In this document: piece after piece, positions 15,178 through 34,514 of the stretch
Layout: each line of letters opens with the position of its first letter
Numbering within the stretch: the stretch's first letter is position 1
Source of the DNA: an uncultured Bacillota bacterium
GTDB taxonomy: Bacteria; Sysuimicrobiota; Sysuimicrobiia; Sysuimicrobiales; Segetimicrobiaceae
Reading direction: 5' to 3'
Length of the DNA: 64,000 bases
Assembly: GCA_963804645.1 (NCBI GenBank)
Contig: CAWDRG010000019.1
Coordinates: forward strand, 32,001-96,000
Program-made: the position numbers and the translations under genes
Notes under the pieces: generated by a model
Database searches by the model: none
Told to the model about the DNA's origin: nothing
Seen by the model: only the letters and a program-made list of their open reading frames with translations

Positions 15178-15585
15178 GGTCGCGGACCTCCTCCACGTTC
15201 CTGACGTGTCGGCGGGCATCCCGCCGGCGGTGAGCGGCTGCCCCGCGCGGAGCGCCGTCCGCACCGCGTGCGCTCCGCCGGTGTGAACCTAGTTCGCCTG
15301 CGGACCGCGCGTCGCCTGCGGCGCCGCCGCGCCCGGGGCGGGGCGGCCGTACGCGGCGGCCCGCGGGCGCCGACTTGTGGAGATGGCGTCTCGCGACTAC
15401 GATTGGTGGCGTGGAGGTGAGTCCGGTCGAGCATCGGCGAGACGGGAGACGCGGACCGCGGGCGGGGGCATCGATCACATACGGCAGGAGGGGACGATGA
15501 CGACCGCGTTGTTTACGAAGTTGTGTCGAGGTGCAACGTTGGACGCGGTGGGCGCAGCCACGCGGCAGCCGGGATTTGCGTCGTG

Positions 15586-16317
15586 ATGCCGTCGATCGAT
15601 CTCATCTCGCGTGCCGTCTTGGTCGCGGGCGCCAGCAGCGGGATCGGACGCGCCATCGCGCTCGGTGCGGCGGAGGCGGGAGCGCGGGTGTGTTTGTTCG
15701 CGCGCGACCGCGCGCGCCTCCAGGCGGTCGAGCGCGCCATCCTCGCGTCGGGTGGGGACGCCGTTGCGGTGGCCGGTGATGCCGCGAGCCCGGACGCGGC
15801 CGCCCTCGCGGTCCGCACGGCGGCCGACCGCTTCGGCCGGCTGGACGTGCTGGTGAACTCGGTGGGGATTAACGTCAAGAACCGGGCGCTTACGGCGCTG
15901 ACCTTGGAGACCTGGCACGAGCTGATCGCAGCCAACCTGACCGCGGCCTACGTGCTGACCCAGGCCGTGCTGCCGCTGTTCCGCGAGCGCTCAGACGGGC
16001 TGCTCATGCATATTGGCTCGATGGCCGCCAAGCGGCCGGACGTCTCCGGGGTCGGCTACCAGGCCGCCAAGCGCGGGCTGGTCGGGCTGGCCCACGGCAC
16101 GATGGAGGAAGAGCGCCAGCACGGGATCAGGGTGACCGTGGTGTTCCCGGGGTTGACCGACACGCCGCTGCTCGACCGGCGCCCCACGCCGCCGACCCCC
16201 GAGGCGCGCGCGAAGGCGCTCCAACCGGCGGACGTCGCGTTCCTGTGCCTGGCGGTGATGGCGCTTCCGCCGCGCGCCCACGTGCCGGAGATCCTGGTGT
16301 ATCCGAGTCGGTTCTGA
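15586..16317 (+). CDS. Short-chain dehydrogenase/reductase
   Basis: GASSGIG and YQAAK motifs. Confidence 0.85.
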   Translation: MPSIDLISRAVLVAGASSGIGRAIALGAAEAGARVCLFARDRARLQAVERAILASGGDAVAVAGDAASPDAAALAVRTAADRFGRLDVLVNSVGINVKNRALTALTLETWHELIAANLTAAYVLTQAVLPLFRERSDGLLMHIGSMAAKRPDVSGVGYQAAKRGLVGLAHGTMEEERQHGIRVTVVFPGLTDTPLLDRRPTPPTPEARAKALQPADVAFLCLAVMALPPRAHVPEILVYPSRF

Positions 16318-16476
16318 CGGAAGATTGATGGGAGCGGGCGGTCCTAAGGCGCGTGCCTACGCCGATCCGAGCAAGATCCGCATCGACCTCCGGGCCTGTC
16401 GTAGGTCAGTGATCCTGTCACCCCAACTGATCAATGAAAATGTCATCCCGGGGTCCTCATCTGCAGGCGGGTTTGG

Positions 16477-16976
16477 TCAGCCCCGCTTCCACGGATGATC
16501 GGGTGGCTGTGGGGGCGGCGTGCGTGGCGCGCGCGGCGGGGGAGCCACGGGCACACACCGCGGGGCTGGTTGCGGCGCCTGCGATAGGCGTCGGCACGAG
16601 AGTGACTGCCCGCGGTAAGAGACGCCTAGGGTGCCATCGAGGAACGCGTGGACGTCGACCCGCGTGTTGGCATAGCTGCGCCCGCTGGGACCCGGCAGCA
16701 GTTGGACCCACTGCCCGGCCAGGCGGATGGTGTTGTCTTGGCCGACGGTGCGGCGGTAGCGGAAGCAGCAGATGCGCTCCAGGTCACGGCGCTCGGGCGC
16801 GGGGCGCCACGCAGGCGTCTTCTGAGCCGCCGACACCGCGAAGCGGGCATTGTAGCGAGGCAGGAACCGATCCAGGACGCGTTGCGCCTGTCCGCCAAGG
16901 TGCCCGCCTTCGCGAGACGCAGTTCGATGACGAGGCGATCCTGGAAGGTGCCAAAGAGCCGCTCGACCCGACCCTT
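16477..16976 (-). pseudogene. IS1202-family transposase, C-terminal fragment
   Basis: KGRVERLFGTFQDRL..., then (after a frameshift near 16890) RTVGQDNTI...DHPWKRG*. Confidence 0.8.
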
Positions 16977-17072
16977 ATCTGGTATGAAATTATCGGATGC
17001 GCCCTCCTCCTACGAGTTGCCGGCAGTCGGCAGCGACGTGCTATGGTGAGACCATCCGGGCGAGGGGCATCT

Positions 17073-17207
17073 GGGAGCACGCAGGACGGGTAGGCCGACG
17101 TCAAGCGATGGGCTGCGAGCCCGAACCTTTATTTGGCCGCCCCTGCGACTAGCCTGGTTGCGCTGAGAGCGCGAATCCGTTCGTGTCGCGTGACCCGCCT
17201 GCCTCCC
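17073..17207 (+). ncRNA. Candidate bridge RNA of IS110 #1
   Basis: Outer stem 17073-17091/17193-17207 encloses two internal loops, each with a central hairpin; loop strands partly match the target (GTCAAG, GAACCTT) and the donor end (ATCCGT). Confidence 0.6.
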
Positions 17208-17223
17208 ATTCAGCAAAGGGGGG

Positions 17224-18465
17224 ATGCATACGCGGTTCTTCGGGTTTGACGTTCATCAGGAATTCACGCAGATCGCGATGCTGGAGGGAGACCAGCTCAC
17301 TCAGCTCGGTCGTATTCCGACCACCCCCGCAGCCTTGCGGGAGTTTGCCGAAACCCTTAGCACTCAGGATCAGGTCGTATTGGAAGCCACCACCAATACC
17401 TATGCGATTGTGCAACTGCTCCAACAGCATGCGGGCCGAGTCGTCGTTTCCAATCCGCTCCAAACACGCGCGATCGCCGATGCCAAGATCAAGACGGATA
17501 AGGTCGATGCCGAAACCTTGGTGCGGTTGCTGGCAGGTGGGTGGCTCCCAGAGGTGTGGGTGCCAGATGCAGACACGCAAGCGCTCCGTCAGCAGGTTGC
17601 GTATCGGATCGGGTTAGTCCGCCAGCGCACGCGAGTCAAGTGTCGTGTGCACAGCATCCTGTCGCGCAATTTGATCGCGAGTTGCCCCCGGAGCGATCTG
17701 TTTGGTAAGGGCGGGCGGCAATGGTTGCTGGAGCAGGCGCTGCCGCAATTGCCCATCCATGAGCAGGCCGTCGTCACGGCCAGTCTGCGCGAGTTCGATA
17801 CCGTGAGCGCGGAGCTGGCTACGATCGAGCGCACGCTCGCCGGAGGAGCATTGCCCAGGCCTGAGGTGCGCCGGCTCATGACGATTCCCGGGATTGATGT
17901 TATCGCCGCCCTAGCGATTATGGCGGCGGTCGGAAATGTTCAGCGTTTTCGTACGCCGTCAAAGCTGGTGGCGTATCTCGGATTAGATCCGCGGGTGCGA
18001 CAATCGGGGTCAGGTCCCGTCAAATACGGACGCATCAGCAAACGCGGCCCGGGGCATGCGCGTGCCGCACTCGTTGAGGCAGCATGGGCGGCGGTGAAGA
18101 GTCCGGGGCCCTTGCGTGTCTTCTACCACCGGGTCCGGAATCGGCGCGGCGGACAGATCGCCGTCGTGGCGACGGCTCGAAAGCTCGTGGTATTAGCGTG
18201 GCACTTGCTCGCCAGGGAGCAGGACTACGCGTTCGTGCGCCCGTCTCTCGTCGCAAAGAAGTGGCGCGCCCTCGAGCTCCAGGCCGGGCATCCCCCGCGG
18301 CGGGGCGAGCGTGGCGCCGCGTACGCGTACTACCTCAAACCGCTGCGTGATCAAGAGCGTGAAATTGGAGTGCAGGCCGAGCGAGCGTATACCTTGCTCA
18401 CCCAGCACTGGCAGCCGCGCCGAGCAACACAGGACGCGGGCGCCGCAAATGGGAAGCGACTCTAA
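17224..18465 (+). CDS. IS110-family DEDD recombinase/transposase #1
   Basis: FGFDVH, LEATT, KTDKVDA, TIPGI, YLGLDPRVRQSG (catalytic Ser region), VATARKL. Confidence 0.95.
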   Translation: MHTRFFGFDVHQEFTQIAMLEGDQLTQLGRIPTTPAALREFAETLSTQDQVVLEATTNTYAIVQLLQQHAGRVVVSNPLQTRAIADAKIKTDKVDAETLVRLLAGGWLPEVWVPDADTQALRQQVAYRIGLVRQRTRVKCRVHSILSRNLIASCPRSDLFGKGGRQWLLEQALPQLPIHEQAVVTASLREFDTVSAELATIERTLAGGALPRPEVRRLMTIPGIDVIAALAIMAAVGNVQRFRTPSKLVAYLGLDPRVRQSGSGPVKYGRISKRGPGHARAALVEAAWAAVKSPGPLRVFYHRVRNRRGGQIAVVATARKLVVLAWHLLAREQDYAFVRPSLVAKKWRALELQAGHPPRRGERGAAYAYYLKPLRDQEREIGVQAERAYTLLTQHWQPRRATQDAGAANGKRL

Positions 18466-19069
18466 GGCGCAGCGCCACTAAGATAATTTGACATGGACGT
18501 CGAATAGGCCCCTCGCACGGGTTCGATCGCAGCCATCGTCGCAGCAACAATCGCAGCAGCGAGGTGAGCTTCCATGGCCGCAGCGTCCGCCACGCCGCCC
18601 GCCGTGCCCTCGGTCAATCTGGCTCAAATCATCAAGCTCCTGCACACGCATCTCACGGCAGCCTTATGTAACACGGTGTTCCAGCGGGTCCGGAATCGGG
18701 AACGCCAACGCCGCTGGTCTTTGGCCGCCCTGGCTCAGTTTTGGCTCACCGTGCTCCTCACGGGCCCCCGTTCGCTGACCCAGGCGTTGCGAGAAACGGG
18801 CATCATGTTCCCCCACCTGGGGCCGGCGGCGCGCACCTCTCCGGAGGCCTTATCTGTTGAGGGACCCCGCCGTCAAGAGGGACCGTGTAACGATTTAGAA
18901 GCTATTCCCCCACCGATCGCGACCGCGGCAAAATGTGCAGCGTCCGACGGGACGATCAAAGCCGTGTCCCGAGAAGCGTTGGCAATTTCTCGCAGCCGAG
19001 TTTCGATGTCGAGATTCTGTGGAGGAATTAGGCCCGGACAATCACCTCCCGGAAAGACCGCGGAGATAG

Positions 19070-19278
19070 GAAGTCTGCGCCAGGGTGCCCAGCCTTATCT
19101 GGGTGCGCGGAGGTATAGCCTCCGGCGACATGATGAGTGATAGGTGCAACCCTGGAGCGGGCTGCGGCCGCATCCATCTTTTCGGGATGTCCACGGACAA
19201 GCCGTGGCGACATGGGCTTACTGGGAGCTGGCCGCATCCCATCTGGTGATCTCGGGCAGAAGCGCAGTAATCCCATCT
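19070..19278 (-). ncRNA. Candidate seek/bridge RNA of IS110 #2 (downstream of the transposase; boundaries approximate)
   Basis: Contains CAGATAAG (identical to one donor end plus core) and CATGTC (other end) around hairpin GGAGG-CTATA-CCTCC; GGCTT and GAAAAG flank a second hairpin and resemble the target. Confidence 0.55.
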
Positions 19279-20343
19279 TCAGGCGATCTCTGAGGCCGGC
19301 TGTTCGAACGACGGAAGGACGTTCACATCGACGGGCGCGAAGGCGCTTTCTCCCAAATTGCGAAGGATGTGGTGTGCACGGCGACAGATCTTGCGCGCGA
19401 CCGACAGACATGCCCGCTTGTGGTTGAGGCGTTCTTTGACCTTCTGGTAGTAGCTACGATCAGGGGCTGTACGCCAAGCGGCGCATTGTGCGGCTTCGTA
19501 CAGCGCCCATCGAAGCGCTTCGGGCCCCTGGCGAGAGAGATGGCCTGGAGGACGCTTGTCGTCCGATTCGTAGACGGTGATGTCCAGCCCCGCATACCGC
19601 ACTGCATCATCCGAGGACGAGAATCTGATACAGTTTCCGAGCTCAGCCCAGATGAAAACGGCGGTAATGTCGCCGACCCCGAACAGGCGCTGCTTGAGGG
19701 CGCGGCAACCTGGCTGCAGCTTTGCAAAGCGCACGAGGTAGGCATCAAGGGGCATGAGCTGGCGGTCGAGATGCTCCATCACCTCAAGCCCCGTCGTCAC
19801 AACTCGCCGCCCGGCGGCTGAAAGGTCAGCTGCGGCGAGCTGCTCCCGTCCTTGTGTCGTGGTGAGTCGGATGCTTGGTATTCCCTGATGGAACAGTTGC
19901 GCTTGGATCCGCTGCTGCCACTCTCGACGTTCATCGGCCACTGACTTGCGAAGCCGGACTAGGGTGCGAATCTCCAGCGCGTGCTCCGGAGGGAACCACG
20001 ATTCCGGGAGACGTCCAGTGAGAAGCAGCTCCACCATGTGGTCGCAATCACGGCGGTCGGTCTTGGCCCGCCGCTTCTTTCCCCTGAGAGCCGCAGTGTC
20101 TGCCGGCTCAGCAAGATGGGCAGTCAAGCCTGCCCGTGAGATTTCCTCCGCGATGAAGCGCCATCCCGTGGTGGCCTCGAGCGCAAAGTGCGCATCGCGG
20201 CCCTTGAAGGGCACGAGGAATTCTCGTACCGTTTCCCTCAGTCCAGGAGCGATGCGACCCCGTTTGATCTCGCCGGTCTCGGTGTTCAACCACTTGAATG
20301 TGATCTGCTTCCTATGCACGTCGAATGCACCTATAATTTCCAT
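19279..20343 (-). CDS. IS110-family DEDD recombinase/transposase #2
   Basis: GAFDVH, ALEATTGW, KTDRRD, YAGLDITVYESD, VARKI; GAGGAGG RBS. Confidence 0.95.
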   Translation of the reverse strand: MEIIGAFDVHRKQITFKWLNTETGEIKRGRIAPGLRETVREFLVPFKGRDAHFALEATTGWRFIAEEISRAGLTAHLAEPADTAALRGKKRRAKTDRRDCDHMVELLLTGRLPESWFPPEHALEIRTLVRLRKSVADERREWQQRIQAQLFHQGIPSIRLTTTQGREQLAAADLSAAGRRVVTTGLEVMEHLDRQLMPLDAYLVRFAKLQPGCRALKQRLFGVGDITAVFIWAELGNCIRFSSSDDAVRYAGLDITVYESDDKRPPGHLSRQGPEALRWALYEAAQCAAWRTAPDRSYYQKVKERLNHKRACLSVARKICRRAHHILRNLGESAFAPVDVNVLPSFEQPASEIA

Positions 20344-21705
20344 TGGGACCTCCTCGATAGCTCCGCCCGTATCCTGGGCTTCAGCACGTGCTTTGTGCTT
20401 GAGCCGAGGGGGCCCCTCTCTCTCAGGGAGTCCCTCTACATGTCATCTTTTTCCAACGCGCCGAGCGGCTGCGGCCCGACTTCTTCCGCGTCCTTTACGA
20501 CGAGTATGTCGCGCACCTGGTGCCGGAGGCCCGCACGACCTACGCCGCCGCCGTGGCGGGGGTGCGCGAGCGCTTCTCCGAGGTCTGGATCCTGGACGGC
20601 ACGCGCCTGGATGCGGTGGCCCATCGGCTCAAGCTCACCTGGGATGTCCGCTCGCCGTTGTTGCCGGGGTGCCTGCTGGTGTGCTACGACCTGTTCCGCG
20701 GCTTCCCCCGGCGCCTCTCGTTCTGCGCCGATGCCGGCCGGAGCGAACTGCAACACGCGCTCGAGCAGCTCCCCACCATTCCCCAAGAGACGCTGCTCAT
20801 TGCGGATCGACTGTTTGCCTCGGTCAAGCTGGTGGCGGCACTCACGCACGGGAAGGGATGGCTCCTCTGCCGCCGGAATCGTCGGCTCACCCTGCGCCAT
20901 CAGCGCTGGCTGCGCCGCGGCCAGTTCAAGGGCGGCACGCTGATGGAGCGCCTCGTCCTCGTCGGGTCGGGGCAAGGCACCCCGCCCCAGCTGATGCGGC
21001 AGATCCGCTATACCCAACATCGACTGACCATTGATCTCTTGACGTCGGTGCTGGACCCTCGGCGCCTCCCCGCAAAAGACGCGCTGGCATGTTACCGATT
21101 GCGCTGGCAAGTGGAACGGCTGTTTTCGGATCTCAAGGGCGTGCTGGATCTCCATCACTTCTACCTCGCCAGCCCGCGCGGGGTGGCCCAACAAGTCTAT
21201 GTCGCGGCCATGGTGTATGCCGCGATGCGCGTGGCGCAAGCCCGCATTGCCGGGGAGCATGACCTGACGCCGGAGGAGTTGTCGCCCACCAAGCTCTTCC
21301 CGCGCCTTGCCCGGGCCTCGCTCACCTTCGTGCTCGGGGACCTGCATTTTGAGGCGACGCAACAGGTGAATCCCCGCGTGCGTTTAATCAAGCCGGATTG
21401 GTCGGAGCTCCCTCCCATGCAGGTCGCGCTGCCGGATCTCCTCGTCGAACCTCGTCGCGGCAAACGCCGCAAGCGTCGGTTCTGCGCGAGCCGGCACCGG
21501 TGGAAATCGTTCGCGCATGTGCGCGGCGCACGTAAGTTCGAATTATGTTAGCGGCGATGACTCTAAGGCGCCGAAGCGCCAACCAGCGCGGCGGAGTTTG
21601 CATTCCCGGACTCCGCTCTTCGGTCCGGCGGTCACCCGCGTCCGCCATTATCCTACCGCGCATGCGCCTCCCGTGCCAAGCGAGGGACTTGACAATTTCA
21701 TCCGT

Positions 21706-22476
21706 GGCCTGCGGCGACGAGGCGGGGATCCACTTGATGCCCAGTTGGTGGAGCGCCCGGCCGACTTGCGTCGCGGGTACGGCGCCGGTGAGCTGCTCCG
21801 GCAGCGGCAGGCGCGCCTTGGAATCGGCCTGGAATAGGCCTGCGCGGTCGGTGTAGACGGCGGCGGGCACGCCATACCGTTGAATCAGCCGGCGGATGAG
21901 GAGGAAGTAGCCATGGGCATCTTCCTCAGGGCGAAACACCGTGGCGAGGACGGTGCCGGTCGCATCGTCGATCGCGGCATGGAGGACGAGACGAGGGCCG
22001 CGGTCTTCGAGCCACGGATGGTGGCTGCCGTCCATCTGGACGAGGAGGCCGGCCTGGGGCATGCGCTCGCGACGGCGACGATGCCGGGGCGGCCGCCGGG
22101 TGCGGGGACTACTGATCCCGGCCTTGCGGAGCAGGCGGCGGACGGTGGGGCGCGAGAGCTGGATGGCTTCGCGTTAGTCCAGGAGCTCGGTGAAGTGGGA
22201 GTCATTGCTACCGGCATAGCGGCCTTGGGCCAGTGCCAGGACCCGGGCGCGGATCTTCTCGGCGGTCCGACGCGGTGACGCACGTCCCCGATTGCCATGG
22301 GCGAGGGCGGCCGGGTCGTGCTTGCGCACGCGGGCGAGCAAGCGCCGGACATGCCGGATGGAATGGCCGAGCAGGCGTGCGGCGTCAGGCACCGGCAGTC
22401 GGCCCTCGAGGATCTGTGTGATCACTTGTCCCCGTTGCTGCTCTTTGCTGCTCAACGTCACCATCTCCCTGGTCAT
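21706..22476 (-). pseudogene. IS1202-family transposase, N-terminal fragment
   Basis: HTH region ..HGNRGR, in-frame TAA at 22174-22176, then LVQMDGSHHPW, IDDATG, YTDR, SPQA; continues as KGRVER at 16976. Confidence 0.85.
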
Positions 22477-22554
22477 GGTGCCAGGGTGACAGAATCACTG
22501 ACCAGTTAGGGGGTGACCAAATCATTGAACAATTACAGCATCGACCTCCGGGCC

Positions 22555-22583
22555 TTGTCTTGCTTGGCGTTTCGCGTTACCAT
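22555..22583 (+). promoter_or_regulatory. Sigma70-type promoter of tRNA-Arg
   Basis: TTGTCT-17 bp-TACCAT, ending 11 nt upstream of the tRNA. Confidence 0.55.
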
Positions 22584-22594
22584 GACCACGGCGC

Positions 22595-22670
22595 GCGCCC
22601 GTAGCTCAGAGGAGAGAGCGGCTGCCTTCTAAGCAGCGGGTCGGGGGTTCGAATCCCTCCGGGCGCGCCA
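22595..22670 (+). tRNA. tRNA-Arg(UCU)
   Basis: Acceptor stem GCGCCCG/CGGGCGC, anticodon arm GCTGC-CTTCTAA-GCAGC, GGTTCGAATCC T-loop, encoded CCA; 76 nt. Confidence 0.95.
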
Positions 22671-22713
22671 AGCTCAGATGGTCCAACCCGGAGACATAGG
22701 TGACAGTTCGTAC

Positions 22714-23895
22714 CTAAGACATGGGTAACACTTTCGGGCCGAACGGATTTTCGAGCGGTTCGAGCACGCGTGTCTCCAGATCAAAGTACCCCAAGTCATC
22801 ATCCATAAAGCTGACCAGCCAGATGTCATCATACACTTCTTTGATGCCGACGGCTTGTCCCACGAAGACTTGGCTGAAGTTGATCTTATGGTTGCCTAGA
22901 CAGATGCGACCGCACTGCGTGACCACGACGGTCTTGTCGTGGAGCGGATAATCGATCTCCGGCAAGCCCGTGTAGGGACGTGGGGAAGGGCGGTAGACTT
23001 GCGCCGGACACTGCATGTCCAGGGCTTCGTGCGGGCGTTCGTTGTTGAAGGTGTCGATAAATTTGTCAAACCGGGCCTGCTGCTGCAGGAGATTGGCCGC
23101 GGCGGGCTTGGTGGCTTCTTTCTTCAACGTGAGGTGCATCCGTTCATGACGGCCGTTCTGCTGGGGATGGCCGGGCTGGATGCGTTCGATGCCAATGCCG
23201 AGGCGTACCCACCAGACCGCCAGTCGGCTCAAGTTGAAGAGGGCGTGCGCGGACGCGAACGGGACGCCGTTGTCGCTGCGGATGTTGGCCGGGAGGCCGC
23301 GCTCCTTAGACAACCGCTCAAACCCTGTAAAGGCATAGGGTTCTTTGGTGGAGGAGAGCGCGTCACAGGCCAGCAGAAACCGGCTGGCGTGGTCGGTGAC
23401 CGTGAGCGGATAGCAGTAGCGGTGATTGCCCAGCAGGAACTCGCCTTTGTAATCGGTGCACCATACTTCGTTCGGACGGTGCCCAAGCGACAAGGGGGTG
23501 CCCTGCGCCCGACGCCGCAGGCGCCCACGACGCTCCACCAGGCCGTGGCGATCCAGCACCGCATGGATCGTGCTCTTCGCGGGGATGGGAATCCCTGCGA
23601 ACCGGCGCGTCAAGCGCTCGCGGATCTTCCGCGCCCCCCAGCTGGCGTGTTCGCGCTTCACAGTGAGGATGTAGTTCTCGACTTGAACGGGCAGTTGGTT
23701 GGCGTAGCGATACGGACGCCGGCTGCGGTCCGTGAGCCCGTGGATGCCGCATTCCTGATACCGATCGAAGAGCTTGTAACCGGTCTTGCGGGAAATCCCA
23801 AACTCTCGGCACAGTTCCGCCATCGACTCACCGGCGAGTCGCCGCGCGACAAACTGCATGCGTTCGTCCATCACCGAACACTCCCTCCAGGGCAT
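22714..23895 (-). CDS. IS481-family transposase
   Basis: MPWRECSVMDER, GISRKTGYK HTH, WCTDYKG, RSDNG, PQQNGRHER, RPHEAL. Confidence 0.95.
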   Translation of the reverse strand: MPWRECSVMDERMQFVARRLAGESMAELCREFGISRKTGYKLFDRYQECGIHGLTDRSRRPYRYANQLPVQVENYILTVKREHASWGARKIRERLTRRFAGIPIPAKSTIHAVLDRHGLVERRGRLRRRAQGTPLSLGHRPNEVWCTDYKGEFLLGNHRYCYPLTVTDHASRFLLACDALSSTKEPYAFTGFERLSKERGLPANIRSDNGVPFASAHALFNLSRLAVWWVRLGIGIERIQPGHPQQNGRHERMHLTLKKEATKPAAANLLQQQARFDKFIDTFNNERPHEALDMQCPAQVYRPSPRPYTGLPEIDYPLHDKTVVVTQCGRICLGNHKINFSQVFVGQAVGIKEVYDDIWLVSFMDDDLGYFDLETRVLEPLENPFGPKVLPMS

Positions 23896-23959
23896 CCGCG
23901 TCCCCCCCTTTAGGGGAGGAAGTGTTACCCATGTGTCCGGTACAACCTGTTACCTATGT

Positions 23960-24770
23960 GTGCAGCCCGTAAAGCCATACACTCAGTCGGTGAGAGTCCG
24001 ACCCGCGGAGTCGCCCAACTTGCCGCGGTAGTGTTGTCCGGCGTCTCGAAGGAGGTGACTCGCGAGACGGAAGCCCGGACGTACAAGTCTCGGCGGCCCG
24101 GCAGAGATATAAAGGCCGCGGTCGGTGGCCCAGGAGACGAGCGATGGATGGGGCCGCAACATGAAGTGAACACTGCAGCGTCGTTATTCAGGCCCACTCA
24201 GAGCTCCGGGAACGGAGTGCTCAGCGCCACAGTGGGAATGAGGGTGCCAAGTTTCTACATAGGGGACGAAGGCCAGTGTGGTTGCGGAAGAAGCTGGGCG
24301 TGTGCACGCAACCAGCCCTCCGGCGTAGGGGTGGCGGCAACATCCAAAGGGTGGATGGTCAAAGCGGGGAAGGGCTCTCACCCGTGAGGCCAGTGATATA
24401 ACCGACTTCACTCGGGAAGTTCACTGGTGGGGGAGAGTCTGGCGCATGAGGCCGTAGGAGCGATGATCGCTCCGATAACAAGGAGCGGGAGCAAAGGGCC
24501 TCTGGGAGCAGGCCAGCGTTGGAGAAGGAGAGGGTGCGGGTGCTGATAACGCGCTCGGGCTACCGCCAAGATCCGGACCGACGCTGTAGGCTGCAGCAAA
24601 CCAATCGCTCCCCAGGTACAGGCTGGGAAGGATCGGGAACGCTGCAACTGAGCGCGTGCTCTTCCAGCCGGATTGGGGAAAACCCGCTATCCGGATGATA
24701 GGGGGCGGGGTGGAACCGTGGTCAGGCTCCTTAACGGTAACCTGACCGGCGCGCCACCCTGCTACCCGAC
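23960..24770 (+). ncRNA. ORF-less group II intron (811 nt)
   Basis: 5' GTGCAG; domain V 24665-24697 (AGCCGGAT-TGGGGAAAACCCG-CT-ATCCGG); domain VI with bulged A at 24764 and 3' ACCCGAC; EBS1 ACATAGG (24257-24263) is complementary to the 5' exon end CCTATGT; no RT ORF. Confidence 0.85.
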
Positions 24771-28359: not shown

Positions 28360-30435
28360 TCAATTGCTGTTCTCGCGCACTACGCGGCAGATTTCCGTCC
28401 CGTATTTCTCCGCGGTGCTCATCCCAAATCCGGGGATGGCCAGTAACTCCTGGGATGTCCGCGGGCGCACGGTGGCCAGAGCCCTCAGTGTCCGGTCGTT
28501 GAAGATTCGGAATGCTGGTACGCCACGCCGGCGAGCCTCGTGCAATCGCCAGATGCGCAACGCTGCCTCAAGGCGAGAATCCGCACCGACTTCTGCCCGA
28601 ATCCCGAGACGGCTTGGCCTTGTTGTGGTCTCACACTTCATTGCCTGGTTCCGAACCGCAGTCACAGTGGCTTTGTTCTTCCGTTTGCGCTCTGCGGATG
28701 GGCGCGCCGTGTCTTTGATGAGGAACTCGATCGGTGTCCCCTCATCCACGGCGTAGCCGGTTCGCGTGAGACGGGCGTTACGGTACGGGATGTGTTTACC
28801 GTCCTTCTCGAAGACTGCGTCCGAGATATGCAGAAGTCCCGCACGCGCCATAGCACCGAGCACTTCTTCGAATGCGTCACGGCTGAAGTCGTGGGCGGGA
28901 TACAGGTCACTGTGCAGCTTGCCCGTTGACTTCGTACCACCCGTCCGCAGCGCGCCGACTACACGCAAGAACGCCGCGCGCTCCGCCTCCGTGGCGTGTC
29001 GGAACCGCTGCGCGGCGCACTTCCCCGGAGCGCAGAAGTCGCAGGTCCCACACGGCTTCTGTCCGTCAGCGAGGTCGCCGAAGTGAGACACGAGGGCACC
29101 CATGCGGCACTGGGTGCTCTCAGCGTAGCGCATCATCTGGTCGAGCTGTGCACGTTTCTGCTGACCCTGCGCGACATACGATTCGCGCCACCGATCGTGA
29201 CCCCGGCTCACGTTCTCGGCGAAGTCCACCAGAGCGCCGCCATGAGTCCAGAGCTTCTCGAGCGCTTTGTCGAAGATCTCCTCATCCATATGGAGCTGGC
29301 GCTGGAGCGCGACTTTTTCTTGAGCCTCGACCCGGAGCAGGGCAAAGATCTGCTCCAGGACCGTAAGGTCCGGATAGTCACGCTCGTGGAAGAAATCGTG
29401 GGTGTGGCGGTCCGCGTAGGAGTGCATCAGGATCGCGCGACTGGGGTTCCCGTCACGCCCGGCGCGTCCGATTTCCTGATAGTACGCTTCGAGACTGCCC
29501 GGCAAGGCCGTGTGGATCACGGTGCGAATGTCGGCTTTGTCAATTCCCATTCCGAAGGCAATTGTGGCCACCATGACCTCGATCCGTCCGCCGAGAAACT
29601 CCTCCTGGACGCGCTGGCGGTGCTGGGCGTCGAGTCCGGCGTGATAGGCCGCAGCGGGAAAGGAGGCGGCGAGTTCGGCTGCCAGTCCTTCCGCCAGCTT
29701 GCGCGTGGGAGCATAGACGATGGCCGGCCTGCGTTCCGCCTTCTGCAGTAATCGTCCGGTGAGTTCGGCCCGGTGGGAAGGCGCGATCTCGACGACCTCG
29801 ATGGCGATGTTGTCGCGCCGGAACCCGTGAACAAACCGGGCCGGCTCGGTCAGGCCCAACTGCTCGGCGATGTCATTCTGAACGAGTGGCGTAGCCGTCG
29901 CGGTCAGCGCCATCACGGGCGCCGGACGCAGGCGGGGCAAATACTGGCCCAGCAGGCGGTAGTCCGGCCGGAAGTCATGCCCCCACTGCGAGATGCAGTG
30001 TGCTTCGTCAATGGCGATCAGAGACAGCGGTCGTTTGGCCAGCATGTCCGGAAAGCCCGCCACGCGCAGGCGCTCCGGCGCAATGAACAGGAACTGCAGC
30101 TTCCCGCCGAGATAATCAAGGCACGCCTGGCGCGAGTCGGCGCGCGGGCGGCCGGAGTGGATGCGTTCGACCGCAAAGCCTCGCGCCCTGAGTTTGGCGA
30201 CCTGATCTTCCATCAAGGCAATGAGCGGGCTGATCACCAGCGTGGTCCCGCCGCGCGCGATGCCAGGTAATTGGTAGCACAGTGACTTGCCCGACCCAGT
30301 TGGCATGACCAGCAGCACGTCCCGGCCCGCAATGGCGGAGAGGCAGACGGCTTCCTGGTTCGGCCGGAAGGAGGAGAAGCCGAACGCATCTTGCAGGAGA
30401 CTCTTCAGGTCCTGCGTTGGCGAGCGCACGGTCAT
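28360..30435 (-). CDS. recQ: RecQ-family ATP-dependent DNA helicase with C-terminal HRDC domain
   Basis: MPTGSGKS, DEAHCISQWGHDFRPDY, TATAT, AFGMGIDK, QEIGRAGRDG, Zn-binding Cys cluster, HRDC (VPAFRIFNDRTL). Confidence 0.95.
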   Translation of the reverse strand: MTVRSPTQDLKSLLQDAFGFSSFRPNQEAVCLSAIAGRDVLLVMPTGSGKSLCYQLPGIARGGTTLVISPLIALMEDQVAKLRARGFAVERIHSGRPRADSRQACLDYLGGKLQFLFIAPERLRVAGFPDMLAKRPLSLIAIDEAHCISQWGHDFRPDYRLLGQYLPRLRPAPVMALTATATPLVQNDIAEQLGLTEPARFVHGFRRDNIAIEVVEIAPSHRAELTGRLLQKAERRPAIVYAPTRKLAEGLAAELAASFPAAAYHAGLDAQHRQRVQEEFLGGRIEVMVATIAFGMGIDKADIRTVIHTALPGSLEAYYQEIGRAGRDGNPSRAILMHSYADRHTHDFFHERDYPDLTVLEQIFALLRVEAQEKVALQRQLHMDEEIFDKALEKLWTHGGALVDFAENVSRGHDRWRESYVAQGQQKRAQLDQMMRYAESTQCRMGALVSHFGDLADGQKPCGTCDFCAPGKCAAQRFRHATEAERAAFLRVVGALRTGGTKSTGKLHSDLYPAHDFSRDAFEEVLGAMARAGLLHISDAVFEKDGKHIPYRNARLTRTGYAVDEGTPIEFLIKDTARPSAERKRKNKATVTAVRNQAMKCETTTRPSRLGIRAEVGADSRLEAALRIWRLHEARRRGVPAFRIFNDRTLRALATVRPRTSQELLAIPGFGMSTAEKYGTEICRVVRENSN

Positions 30436-31304: not shown

Positions 31305-31856
31305 AGCACACCTCCATGTTGTCTCACCTGGGGACGCTGCACGTCTGCATTTCCGCATATCGCATTGAGGTCCTCTACGCCGACCGTCTGGAGTCGTCAC
31401 CGAGGGCGCGCCTTCCGAGCAGCGCGTCGGGGTCCGAGTCCCTCCGGTCGCGCCAATTGCTTCACCGGTAGACGGGCTGTCCGTGTCGCCAATGACCCCT
31501 GGCCCGGTACACGTCTGCACGGAGATCGATCCCAGCAGCAGCGTTACCCGAATTTCCATAGTATGCTTCGCCGGCCCCACCTCAGACGGCCGAACATCAT
31601 TTCGACATCGATCTCAGTCATCGACGAGTCTGTTTACTCGTCGAGACAGAACTTGGATGTGTAAACCTGAAGTGGCAACCCCGCTGGGACGAAAGGCCCA
31701 TGCTCCTTTAAATAGCGCTGGGCTATAGTTTCGTTGGATCGGCGGGACGCGTAAGCCGCAGAGTCTTGTCGCCGGCGTGGTCATGTCATGCAACGACACC
31801 GCAGCGATCGTCGTCCCGCATTCAGAGCCGAGATCCATGGTGGGGGGAGGTTACAG

Positions 31857-34514
31857 GTGCCGCGCAGCATGCCCCAGACGCTGGTCGACATCATTGCCGC
31901 GCAACCCAACGACGCGGTCGCGATCGTCGGTCCGGATGGAGAGACGCTCACCTACGAGATGCTGGGACGGCGTCTCGATGCGACCGGCGCGATGCTGCGA
32001 CGCGCGGGTATCAGCCGTGGGGATCGCGTCGTGTGTGTCCTCTCCGACAGCGCGGAAGCAGCTGTGGCGCTGCTGGCGGTCGCAAGTGCGGCGGTCTGTG
32101 TGCCGCTCCATCCGTCCTGCGGGGCCGATGAATTCGACGTCTACCTCGGCGAGGTGCTGGCCAAAGCCATCCTGATCGACGGTTCGGAGTCGTCCGTGCG
32201 GAGCGTGGCACAGCGACGCGGCATGCCGATCGTCGAGATCGGCCGGCGGAACGGTGCCGTGGACGTCATCGCCCCACTCCCGGATGCCACACGCACCGCG
32301 GTCCCAACTGTCGTTCCGTCTCCCGGGGACACCGCGATCGTGTTTCGTACGTCGGGCACCACCGGGCGGCCGAAGCGAGTGCCGCTGACGCACGCGATGC
32401 TGTGCGTTCGTGCATTTCTTGCATACGAAAGTAACGCGGGGTCCCAGGTGTCGGCCGAGGATCGCTGTCTCAACCTCATGCCGCTTTGCTACTATGCCGG
32501 CTTCTACACTCTGCTGACGGCGCTCGCGGCCGGCGGCAGCATCGCGTGGCCGCAGAGCCTCGACCCCGACGCGTTTTTCGCCGCGCTCGAGGTCTTCCGC
32601 CCGTCGTGGTATGCGGCCACGCCGACGGTGCACAGCGCCATCGTTGCTCACGCCGCGCGGTACGCCGATCTGATCGCCAGGTACCCGCTGCGATTCATTC
32701 GATCCGCGACGGCGGAATTGGCGCCGCCGCTGTGGGCGGACCTGGAGCGAGTCTTCAACGCCCCGGTCGTGTCCACGTATGCGACGACCGAGACGTCACG
32801 GGTGTGCATGAACGCGCTGCCTCCGGGCCTGCACAAGGCGGGCTCGCTGGGACGGTGCGTCCCTGGGTCGGTTGGGATTCTGGACGCGCAGGGATACCTG
32901 GTGCCCGTGGGTGCGGAGGGCGAGATCGGGGTACGAGGCCCCACCGTGTTCACCGGCTACGAAGACGACCCGGAGGCCACGCGGGCGGCGTTTGTCCATG
33001 GCTGGTTCCGCACAGGGGACAGCGGCCGCATCGACGCGGATGGGTTCCTGTTCCTTACCGATCGGATCAAGGACGTGATCAATCGGGGTGGGACGAAGAT
33101 CTCACCCCACGCCGTCGAGATGGTGCTGTTAGCCCATCCCGCGGTCGCGGCCGCGGCCGTGTTCGGCATGCCCCATGCGACGCTCGGCGAAGACGTGGTG
33201 GCGGCGGTCGTGCCGCGATCGGGCAGTGCGGTGACGGAGCGTGACCTGCGCGCCTTCGCGGCGGCGCGGCTTTCGGCGTTCGAAACACCGGACCGCGTGC
33301 TGCTGGTGGAGCGGATTCCAACGAGCGCGGTGGGCAAGGTGCAGCGTCGGATGCTGGCGCAGCAGCTGGCCCCACTGCTGACCGTGCAGCACGAGATGCC
33401 GGCGACGGATCTTGACCGCGCGATTGCGGAGGTGTGGACCCGCGAACTGCGGGTGCCGACGAGTCTCCACGACAACTTCTTCGCCCTGGGCGGAGACTCG
33501 CTCACGGCGGTGCGGGTGGTCAGCGAGGTCTCCCGGATGTTCCGAACGGCGCTGCCGGTGAACACGCTGCTGCAGGCGTCGACGGTGGCGCAGATGGCCG
33601 ACCTTATTCGGCAGGGGGACCGGCTGCCGCCGTGGTCGTCGCTGGTGCCGATCCAGGCGGGACGCGGCCGGCCGCCGCTGTTCTGCGTCCACGGCGCACA
33701 AGGCAATATCCTGGATTTCCGCGAACTGGCACAACACTTGGGGTCGGACCAGCCGGTGTACGGACTACAGTCACAAGGCCTTGACGGCGTGCTCGCCCCC
33801 TACACCCGGATCGAGGACATGGCCGCCCACTACTTGCGGGAAATCGAGGCGGTGGCGTCCCACGGCCCCGAGTTTCTGTGCGGCTTTTCCATGGGTGGCA
33901 TCGTCGCCCTCGAGATGGCCCGGCAACTGCACGCCGCCGGTCGTCGCGTCGCCCTCCTCGCGATGCTGGACACCCGTTTGAACCGGTTGGCGTCTCTCCC
34001 GGGCCTCACGACCGGGCAGCAAATCGTGTTTCATGTCCGGCATTGCGGGGAGGCCGGGCTTCGACTCGCTCGGAACTCCGCCGCCGACGGCGCGAAGTAC
34101 CTGCTCCCCGGAACGGTCGCGGACACGAGGAGATCCACCCTGGGACGGCCGGATCAGCGCGATCCCGGCCCGGACGTACCTGCGATCATGAGGCGTATCG
34201 AGGAACTCAACGTGCGGGCCACCAAACACTATCGTCCCCAGGTCTACCCGGGTAAGATCGTGGTCTACCTCGCGAAAGATGCCGTCTGGTCGTCACGATA
34301 CGCCTCCCTCCTGGGATGGCGGTATCTGGCGGGAGGGGGACTGGACATCGCGGTGATCCCCGGAGATCATGACTGCTTTCTCTCTGCGCCAGCAGAATTG
34401 GCGGCCAACCTCCGGGCCAGAATTGATCAGATCCTCGAAACATCTCGGATGTCGCATCCCGCAGTGGCCCATCACGAGCGGGCGGCCGGCATCGCGAGTG
34501 AGGGACGGGCATAA
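31857..34514 (+). CDS. Stand-alone NRPS-like A-T-TE enzyme (acyl-CoA-ligase-type A domain)
   Basis: TSGTTGRPKRVPLTH, WFRTGD, INRGG.KISP; carrier protein FFALGGDSL; thioesterase GFSMGG and PGDH; GGAGG RBS before GTG. Confidence 0.88.
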   Translation: MPRSMPQTLVDIIAAQPNDAVAIVGPDGETLTYEMLGRRLDATGAMLRRAGISRGDRVVCVLSDSAEAAVALLAVASAAVCVPLHPSCGADEFDVYLGEVLAKAILIDGSESSVRSVAQRRGMPIVEIGRRNGAVDVIAPLPDATRTAVPTVVPSPGDTAIVFRTSGTTGRPKRVPLTHAMLCVRAFLAYESNAGSQVSAEDRCLNLMPLCYYAGFYTLLTALAAGGSIAWPQSLDPDAFFAALEVFRPSWYAATPTVHSAIVAHAARYADLIARYPLRFIRSATAELAPPLWADLERVFNAPVVSTYATTETSRVCMNALPPGLHKAGSLGRCVPGSVGILDAQGYLVPVGAEGEIGVRGPTVFTGYEDDPEATRAAFVHGWFRTGDSGRIDADGFLFLTDRIKDVINRGGTKISPHAVEMVLLAHPAVAAAAVFGMPHATLGEDVVAAVVPRSGSAVTERDLRAFAAARLSAFETPDRVLLVERIPTSAVGKVQRRMLAQQLAPLLTVQHEMPATDLDRAIAEVWTRELRVPTSLHDNFFALGGDSLTAVRVVSEVSRMFRTALPVNTLLQASTVAQMADLIRQGDRLPPWSSLVPIQAGRGRPPLFCVHGAQGNILDFRELAQHLGSDQPVYGLQSQGLDGVLAPYTRIEDMAAHYLREIEAVASHGPEFLCGFSMGGIVALEMARQLHAAGRRVALLAMLDTRLNRLASLPGLTTGQQIVFHVRHCGEAGLRLARNSAADGAKYLLPGTVADTRRSTLGRPDQRDPGPDVPAIMRRIEELNVRATKHYRPQVYPGKIVVYLAKDAVWSSRYASLLGWRYLAGGGLDIAVIPGDHDCFLSAPAELAANLRARIDQILETSRMSHPAVAHHERAAGIASEGRA

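Follow-up and report, generated by a model that had tools for sequence, protein, structure and literature searches.

What brings four insertion sequences (ISs) to lie one inside another, and did any of them select its landing site? The question is posed by a nest of mobile elements in the window analyzed here, the whole 64,000-nucleotide stretch G000:C19:32001-96000 of genome G000 (5.3 Mb, 69% G+C, 22 contigs), a genome matched best, among public sequencing runs, by peat metagenomes. The nest lies in the spacer between a short-chain dehydrogenase gene (15523-16317) and a tRNA-Arg(TCT) gene (22595-22670, plus strand) and consists, from the outside inward, of an IS1202-family element, an IS110-group element (here IS110-1), an IS4-family element and an IS1111-group element (IS110-2). 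We put at roughly 80% the probability that the nest arose by four successive insertions into this spacer and that IS110-1 was guided into its host element by a bridge RNA. All four elements belong to known families with known mechanisms, and the nest itself is ordinary; its interest lies in the homing of IS110 elements into transposase genes, not in the nesting. The features on which the argument draws are listed here in window coordinates.

16380-16396: 17-bp target-site duplication of the outer element, left copy, an exact repeat of 22538-22554
16397-16976, minus strand: first piece of the outer element, comprising a TGT terminus and the C-terminal transposase part from KGRVER (tblastn with the 438-amino-acid transposase of an intact relative)
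16977-21705, plus strand: IS110-1, 4,729 bp now and ~1,630 bp without its insert, with ends common to relatives
17081-17202, plus strand: predicted bridge RNA core of IS110-1 (alignment A1 of 15 relatives, RNAalifold and a pair test)
17093-17138, plus strand: predicted target-binding module, with loop sides 17098-17108 and 17124-17133
17145-17189, plus strand: predicted donor-binding module of the same bridge RNA fold
17224-18465, plus strand: intact 413-amino-acid recombinase reading frame of IS110-1 (Pfam DEDD_Tnp_IS110 and Transposase_20; NF033542)
18459-18469: left copy of the 11-bp target duplication of the IS4 element, identical to 21560-21570 and containing the TAA stop of IS110-1
18470-21559, plus strand: IS4-family element whose own 1,492 bp (18470-18851 and 20450-21559) are split by IS110-2 (intact C11 copy; Pfam DDE_Tnp_1)
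18852-20446, minus strand: IS110-2, IS1111 group, 1,595 bp, with an identical copy at C10:186496-188090
19085-19245, minus strand: conserved right-end non-coding block of IS110-2, a candidate bridge/seek RNA (three-way alignment with relatives in G031 and G081)
20343-19279, minus strand: 354-amino-acid reading frame of IS110-2 (Pfam and NCBIfam)
21560-21705, plus strand: right end of IS110-1, cut off from its reading frame by IS4, with TTGACA at 21689-21694; contiguous with 18457 in IS4-free forms
21706-22537, minus strand: second piece of the outer element, comprising the N-terminal helix-turn-helix (HTH), most of the catalytic domain to SPQA and the other TGT terminus (Pfam, tblastn and end alignment)
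22538-22554: right copy of the 17-bp duplication, an exact repeat of 16380-16396

An initial annotation of this DNA had proposed four layers with eight junctions, and in the assembled sequence every coordinate is borne out, the IS1202-family element (16397-22537) containing IS110-1 (16977-21705), which contains IS4 (18470-21559), which in turn contains IS110-2 (18852-20446). Because each element sits inside the previous one, the order of insertion is fixed, and as read from this topology it is the outer element first, then IS110-1, IS4 and IS110-2. Relative ages agree with that order: the outer element is degenerate and its closest relative only 70% identical, and IS4 and IS110-2 are recent, since identical twins of both exist in the same genome. 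The nest is in this respect a resolved record of four insertions, with their order and relative ages.

For each of the four layers an un-nested counterpart was located, as the initial annotation had called for. That of the outer element is an intact IS1202-family relative on the same contig (C19:124051-125364, 438 amino acids, 70% identical), which is collinear across 16976/21706. The minus-strand transposase gene of the outer element is in two pieces; a tblastn search with the intact relative's transposase aligns at 64% identity across residues 1-261, ending at SPQA, and residues 258-283 (KGRVERLFGTFQDRL…) resume beyond IS110-1. Excising IS110-1 restores the host frame SPQA|KGRVER, in agreement with the relative. 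For IS110-1, IS4-free forms are found in metagenome contigs and in the sister genome G004 of the same genus, which carries two copies (90% identical to the window copy, 1,630 bp) that serve as empty-site controls for the IS4 insertion, and both of which interrupt, at the same base as the window copy, an element of the IS1202 family. We compared contigs from four public runs, which possibly represent other strains, with the window junctions; the IS4-free joint of 18457 to 21559 is present in an X1 contig (147 nt on the short side) and an X7 contig (79 nt).

The two inner layers are resolved to the nucleotide. The window IS4 shows 0 differences from an intact copy at C11:130372-131863 across 382 + 1,110 nt, and its 11-bp duplication, actctaaggcg, stands at 18459-18469 and 21560-21570 and includes the IS110-1 stop at 18463-18465. 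CTT flanks IS110-2 on both sides (18849-51 and 20447-49), and the intact C11 IS4, in which the same site is empty, has a single CTT and reads EA-F-FQR continuously, so that excision of IS110-2 restores IS4 exactly as had been claimed. When rejoined, the 92- and 366-amino-acid pieces are free of stops and equal the 459-amino-acid C11 protein except for the split F codon. The IS110-2-free joint of 18848 to 20447 occurs in all four runs. The C10 copy of IS110-2 is identical at 1,595 of 1,595 positions; its surroundings are unique DNA, with an rve transposase gene on one side and a group II intron on the other. Both IS110 recombinase frames are intact, also as annotated, and cover almost the whole of the NF033542 model (‘IS110 family RNA-guided transposase’, cutoff 140 bits): 246.9 bits over model positions 1-342 of 343 for IS110-1, and 171.1 bits over positions 5-340 of 343 for IS110-2.

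IS110-1 possesses the architecture of the IS110 group. Its termini agree with those of at least seven relatives (left AT(C/G)(T/A)GGTATGAAA, right TTGACAATTTCATCCGT), its protein combines a DEDD RuvC-like domain at the N terminus (PF01548, 4.5e-19) with a C-terminal Transposase_20 domain (PF02371, 1.5e-24), and its longer non-coding end lies upstream of the gene (247 nt, as against 146 nt on the right) and is predicted to encode a bridge RNA with target and donor loops. According to PMC11208160 and PMC11187229, IS110-group elements have their guide RNA in the left end and IS1111-group elements have it in the right end, and excision is scarless. The left part of IS110-1 is matched in 13 of 61 related genomes. 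Left ends of 15 relatives align at 73% mean column identity even though the proteins are only ~50% identical, and RNAalifold of this alignment yields an outer stem enclosing two modules, each of a stem, an internal loop and a hairpin. The pair test finds 92.9% of cells paired, compared with 35-45% when the partners are slid, and compensatory changes occur in 12 of the 38 predicted pairs. On four of five measures no shuffle out of 500 came up to what was observed; on the fifth, further pair types, 25 of 500 did.

The loops of this predicted RNA resemble a guide. The sides of the first loop are the sole hypervariable part of the core: their columns average 57% identity, where the remainder of the core averages 88% and the second loop 80%. 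The second loop is conserved, and its 3′ side contains ATCCGT, with which the right end closes. The 3′ side of the first loop carries the left-flank sequence followed by bases resembling the element's own start, and its 5′ side the right flank in reverse complement, plus one base. When the 7-nt left flank is compared with the element's own loop in eight target classes, with one element per class, 47 of 56 positions match, a score that the true assignment alone reaches among 40,320 permutations. The guide loop covaries with the flanking target, with weaker support on the right flank. In a circular form of IS110-1, TTGACA (21689-21694) and TATGAA (16983-16988) would stand 17 nt apart, a sequence potential of the kind described in PMC11208160, where a junction promoter rebuilt across the circle is given as a rule of the IS110 family. 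We infer from these features that IS110-1 produces and uses a bridge RNA.

As a separate observation, an X1 variant contig of IS110-1 is 99.7% identical, and five of its six substitutions fall within the 21 nt of the target-loop sides (binomial 1e-9); such a pattern suggests that the guide is naturally re-written or that copies have exchanged sequence. The clade as a whole forms a natural bridge RNA series, in which target loops have been re-written many times on a fixed scaffold.

Targeting is seen most directly in G004. Between its two IS110 copies there are 2 differences in 1,630 nt (99.88% identity), the parts of the host elements are only 89.1% and 93.6% identical, and the two composites carry different 16-bp duplications. 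Near-identical IS110 elements at the same base in diverged hosts mean that one lineage entered two already-diverged hosts, that is, by targeted insertion.

The course of events we propose would be as follows. An ISTde1-type IS1202-family element would have inserted in the spacer with a 17-bp duplication. IS110-1 would then have interrupted that element's transposase gene four codons short of the catalytic glutamate (SPQA|KGRVER), directed by a bridge RNA from its left end of 247 nt, whose variable loop has the left-flank sequence on one side and, on the other, the right flank in reverse complement. Next, an IS4-family element preferring TCTWAG-centered targets would have landed 4 bp past the IS110-1 stop, generating the 11-bp duplication, and IS110-2 would finally have entered the IS4 transposase gene at a near-cognate site of its own right-end guide, scarlessly and with an AAG/CTT core.

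Among the rival explanations, passive accumulation survives best, though we hold it to be rather unlikely. According to this explanation, elements insert anywhere, those in dispensable DNA survive, and nests form without targeting. The IS4 layer partly fits, since four IS4 sites share only TCTWAG, an A+T-rich, stop-containing word in a 69% G+C genome, and two of them are right at a stop codon that ends the transposase gene of another element, a harmless place for insertion; the locus also contains an IS481-like element and a group II intron. Passive accumulation cannot, however, give near-identical IS110 elements at the same base of two diverged hosts, nor the covariation of guide and flank, nor the flank motif common to two IS110-2 copies. 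A second possibility is that the IS1202-family element and its inner IS110-1 spread as a unit after one old insertion. The same arrangement does occur in G000, twice in G004, and in G022 and G006, and three Svornostia loci with the same flank could be copies of a composite; yet the G004 IS110 parts are far more alike than the host parts around them, and members of the clade also lie in transposase genes of IS481-like, IS3-like and IS21/Mu-like families, which makes shared inheritance very improbable. That an assembler threaded repeat copies into one another is scarcely credible, for although IS4 and IS110-2 are multi-copy with identical copies elsewhere, and short-read contigs of the four runs show only un-nested forms of the inner junctions, those runs may contain other strains, and a mis-join falls in shared sequence and would make neither an 11-bp duplication of IS110-1 around a complete IS4 nor a complete, CTT-flanked IS110-2 with IS4 in register on both sides.

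Several observations weigh against four successive, partly guided insertions. The nested order depends on the assembly and on correct duplications: no contig in the four runs bridges the window IS110-1|IS4 or IS4|IS110-2 junctions by at least 31 nt, and the sole contig across 18469|18470, which has 29 nt on that side and the C11 flank at its other end, was not counted. As to guidance, the matches of the window copy are imperfect (5/7 on the left flank, 4/6 on the right), and roughly half of the relatives match poorly on the right flank, the matches being good in L003, L016, L023, L025/26, L030 and L041, partial in the window, L006, L018 and L022, and poor in L019, L020, L029 and L031. Good left and poor right flanks recall the ‘half-match’ insertions named in 10.64898/2026.08.31.748434. 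The SPQAKGR site of the intact IS1202-family copy on C19 (gaCCTTT|CGCCTG) is empty, and its fit to the guide is no worse than that of the occupied site. The donor/target ‘core’ of the clade agrees only in T for most members, which is not a clean duplication. A search of G000 found no second copy of IS110-1, only relatives of 64-66% identity, and Rfam returned no family for either non-coding end or RNA (E <=1 on 15500-24500; gathering thresholds on the whole window). For IS110-2, the loop sides change with the targets in three sequences, yet 0 of 49 pairs are compensatory and the right-flank guide needs a 1-nt register shift.

Every member of the clade closes its right end with GT (…CATCCGT), and the left flank ends in TT, CT, AT or GT.

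How general is the targeting of transposase genes? We surveyed 22 loci of the IS110-1 clade, which are kin and hence not independent, and scanned the genes at their flanks in all reading frames, the DNA being G+C-rich. Fourteen loci lie in transposase genes, of five distinct target classes, five lie elsewhere, and the remaining three are unclassified. The hosts are these.

IS1202-family elements: the window, G004 twice, G022 and G006 (BLAST collinearity; Pfam)
An rve_3 gene: G002 (all-frame scan)
IS481-like elements: four Svornostia loci, one of which (L028) is unscanned and judged by flank identity to L025
A transposase gene: a Gaiellaceae metagenome-assembled genome (MAG)
IS3-like elements: Roseomonas and Falsiroseomonas
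A gene with a Mu/IS21-type C-terminal domain: a gammaproteobacterial MAG (26.2 bits, slightly below the cutoff of 27)
Non-transposase loci, five: two antitoxin-like genes, a SnoaL neighbor, a cupin/DUF998 neighborhood and a MobA-like/LEA spacer

The motifs entered include SPQA|KGRVER (IS1202-family), TDNG (IS481-like) and NGxxER (IS3-like). We lean slightly toward the view that bridge RNAs of this clade, in at least four phyla, are tuned to conserved codons of DDE transposase catalytic domains (rve-type and Mu/IS21-type) in unrelated IS families, which would make these elements parasites of parasites that disable the host element on landing. If so, the landing site would be multi-copy, dispensable and horizontally travelling. 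We found no paper on an IS110 clade that targets coding motifs of other transposases in a limited set of literature, with supplementary target tables outside its scope; targets known for IS110/IS1111 elements, according to PMC11187229 and PMC11208160, are REP (repetitive extragenic palindromic) repeats, attC sites and terminal repeats of Tn21-family transposons.

The two antitoxin-like hosts scored slightly below cutoff (L003 in G052, HTH_3, 22.9 bits; L019 in G011, VapB, 21.3 bits). Their sites, GCCCTT|CGCCTG and GCCCTT|CTTCGT, resemble the IS1202-family target, and off-target or half-match insertion is a possible account of both.

The initial annotation had suggested that mobile elements are ‘preferred or safe-harbour targets’. 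As a general rule this goes too far. IS110-1 owes its position, on the proposed reading, to RNA-guided recognition of a site in an IS1202-family transposase gene that was hit independently in several genomes; IS110-2 occupies what looks like a near-cognate site here and unique DNA on C10, and IS4 follows TCTWAG sites.

With its reading frame, RNA region and both termini intact, IS110-1 may still be mobile with its 3.1-kb cargo. The outer transposase is, to judge from its sequence, dead, being interrupted by IS110-1 four codons before the catalytic E. The outer element ends in TGT...ACA, with imperfect inverted repeats of ~50 bp common to the ends of a relative, and its duplication amounts to 18 identical bases if an ambiguous T is counted (18 letters are common at the read-contig joint 16379>22538). 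That joint, the empty chromosomal site, occurs in two runs of one study with a shorter side of 25 nt, and is a hint only. Marks of the ISTde1 subgroup are TGT ends, a 15-17-bp repeat and a Q seven residues past the catalytic E (bioRxiv 10.1101/2022.12.17.520857); the TGT termini and a direct repeat of that length are present (17 bp here, 16 bp in both G004 copies), as are the HTH and DDE transposase with Q at E+7 (KGRVERLFGTFQ), the window copy itself being broken. On NF033594 (ISNCY family; cutoff 250) the intact relative reaches 383 bits, and it and the window copy are the only two IS1202-family copies in G000.

This is the only decayed layer of the four. An in-frame TAA (22174-22176, ELLD*REA) and a frame change near 16892-16908, both reported in the initial annotation and taken there as consistent with the outermost element being the oldest, are present in the outer transposase. 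A 1,862-nt X1 contig with IS110-1 in the host element is 2 nt shorter at 16892, and since this IS110-1-bearing contig lacks those 2 nt the window frameshift is a 2-nt insertion; an X2 contig reads G at 22176, giving CAA in place of TAA. The lesions are young, because a variant already carrying IS110-1 is without the frameshift and another contig has CAA.

Elsewhere on C19 (L013, G000:C19:123500-127500), a 469-amino-acid reading frame with weak IS481/rve similarity immediately follows the intact IS1202-family relative, and an additional IS1202-type end is found at C19:126866-126939.

The IS4 layer carries the DDE_Tnp_1 domain (PF01609), inverted repeats matching at 18 of 22 positions and an 11-bp duplication at three sites; the intact C11 protein scores 128.6 on NF033592 (cutoff 115). 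The C11 copy likewise lies within another element, the 11-bp repeat around it, tgtcttaggta, including the TAG stop of an IS481-like transposase gene. TCTWAG is shared by all four IS4 sites (the window, C11, a C9 derivative and a C22 relative), and an 11-mer centered on it tends to include stop codons. That excision of IS110-2 could reactivate IS4, as had been supposed, agrees with the exact, scarless restoration and with family behavior (PMC11208160), yet it matters little because an identical intact IS4 is already on C11. Two further loci belong beside this layer: the C11 nest (L014, C11:129800-132400) includes the end of an IS481-like copy and lies beside a tRNA gene 85% identical to that of the window, and at C9:256710-257599 an IS4 derivative of 890 bp, which has IS4-type ends on both sides and the 11-bp duplication ggtcttaagag, looks like a transposase-less miniature derivative.

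IS110-2 has the marks of the IS1111 group: a DEDD recombinase, a short end of 103 nt upstream of the gene, a longer one of 427 nt downstream (18852-19278), and subterminal repeats GAGGGAC/GTCCCTC. Its two sites share the flank motif CC.GAG.CCTT|CTTTTT. Only two relatives were found among 94 genomes of the phylum; in these two full relatives (G031 and G081) and in the flanks of three further relatives (G001), insertion follows …RAAAG, with AAG on both sides. The circle junction predicted for IS110-2 is …CAACAGAT-AAG-ATGACATG…. In the right end, CGAAAAGA/CGGAAGA/CAAAAGA accompany left flanks AAAAAG/GGAAG/CAAAAG, and AGCCC(A)/CCTCC/AGCCCC to other flanks GGGCT/GGCCT, GGAGG and GGGGCT; for this modeled guide assignment the odds are about even. 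The IS4 site GAAAAAG|GCCT looks like a near-cognate match to these short guides. A further candidate in the right end, CCGGAGGC, matches the IS4 target perfectly and was rejected as a guide, being a conserved hairpin stem kept in relatives with other targets.

The spacer around the tRNA-Arg(TCT) gene, which lies directly past the nest, is a pile-up site of mobile DNA. An intact 393-amino-acid IS481-like transposase gene (22714-23895, minus strand; NF033577, 217 bits, slightly below the cutoff of 224) is followed by a group II intron domain (23984-24164, plus strand; RF02003, 58 bits). Farther on, and unrelated to the nest, a RecQ-type helicase gene (28360-30435) lies near the gene for a 908-amino-acid single-module protein with adenylation, carrier and thioesterase domains (31788-34514, plus strand).

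Set against known systems, the window IS4 is like the IS4 family (IS4 subgroup) in its DDE_Tnp_1 domain, its 22-bp terminal repeats and its 11-bp duplication; its TCTWAG-centered target derives from four sites only. The outer element resembles the ISTde1 subgroup (TGT ends, 15-17-bp duplication, HTH and DDE domains, Q at E+7) and differs from it in being dead, split, and marked by a stop and a frameshift. IS110-2 is like the IS1111-group elements ISEc11, ISKpn4 and ISPa11 of Siddiquee et al. 2024 (PMC11187229), its left end being short and its right end long, its inverted repeats subterminal, and a true target duplication lacking; unlike the seekRNAs described there, its guide RNA is only predicted, from three sequences.

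IS110 elements expanded up to 9.2 kb are active, and about half of those above 2 kb contain another transposase or integrase, according to bioRxiv 10.64898/2026.08.14.744561. IS110-1, at 4.7 kb and with its extra DNA between reading frame and right end, is like these cargo-bearing elements; unlike the reported cases, its ‘cargo’ is simply two later insertion sequences. If this recombinase lineage has indeed specialized on coding motifs of other transposases, annotators should be cautious, in that IS110 elements can resemble composites of 4-5 kb.

The closest comparison is with IS621 of the IS110 group, as described by Durrant et al. 2024 (PMC11208160). IS110-1 shares with it the DEDD and Transposase_20 domains, the long left non-coding end, a predicted RNA with two internal-loop modules (a variable target loop and a conserved donor loop) whose loop sides match different DNA strands, and a -35 box in the right end with a -10 box in the left. 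In contrast to IS621, the IS110-1 recombinase is longer (413 amino acids), its donor side ends in GT and its target side in NT where IS621 has a shared CT core, and its targets are codons in the transposase genes of other elements rather than REP repeats. One member of the IS110/IS1111 superfamily likewise uses another mobile element as a specific landing site; that site is a non-coding terminal repeat, whereas here it is coding sequence for conserved motifs of the catalytic domain, so that the host transposase is destroyed. The pattern suggests one RNA-guided recombinase lineage specialized on conserved coding motifs of other transposases, which, if true, would represent a new ecological relation between mobile elements, one silencing another, and would supply ready-made natural pairs of guide and target for the study of mismatch and wobble tolerance.

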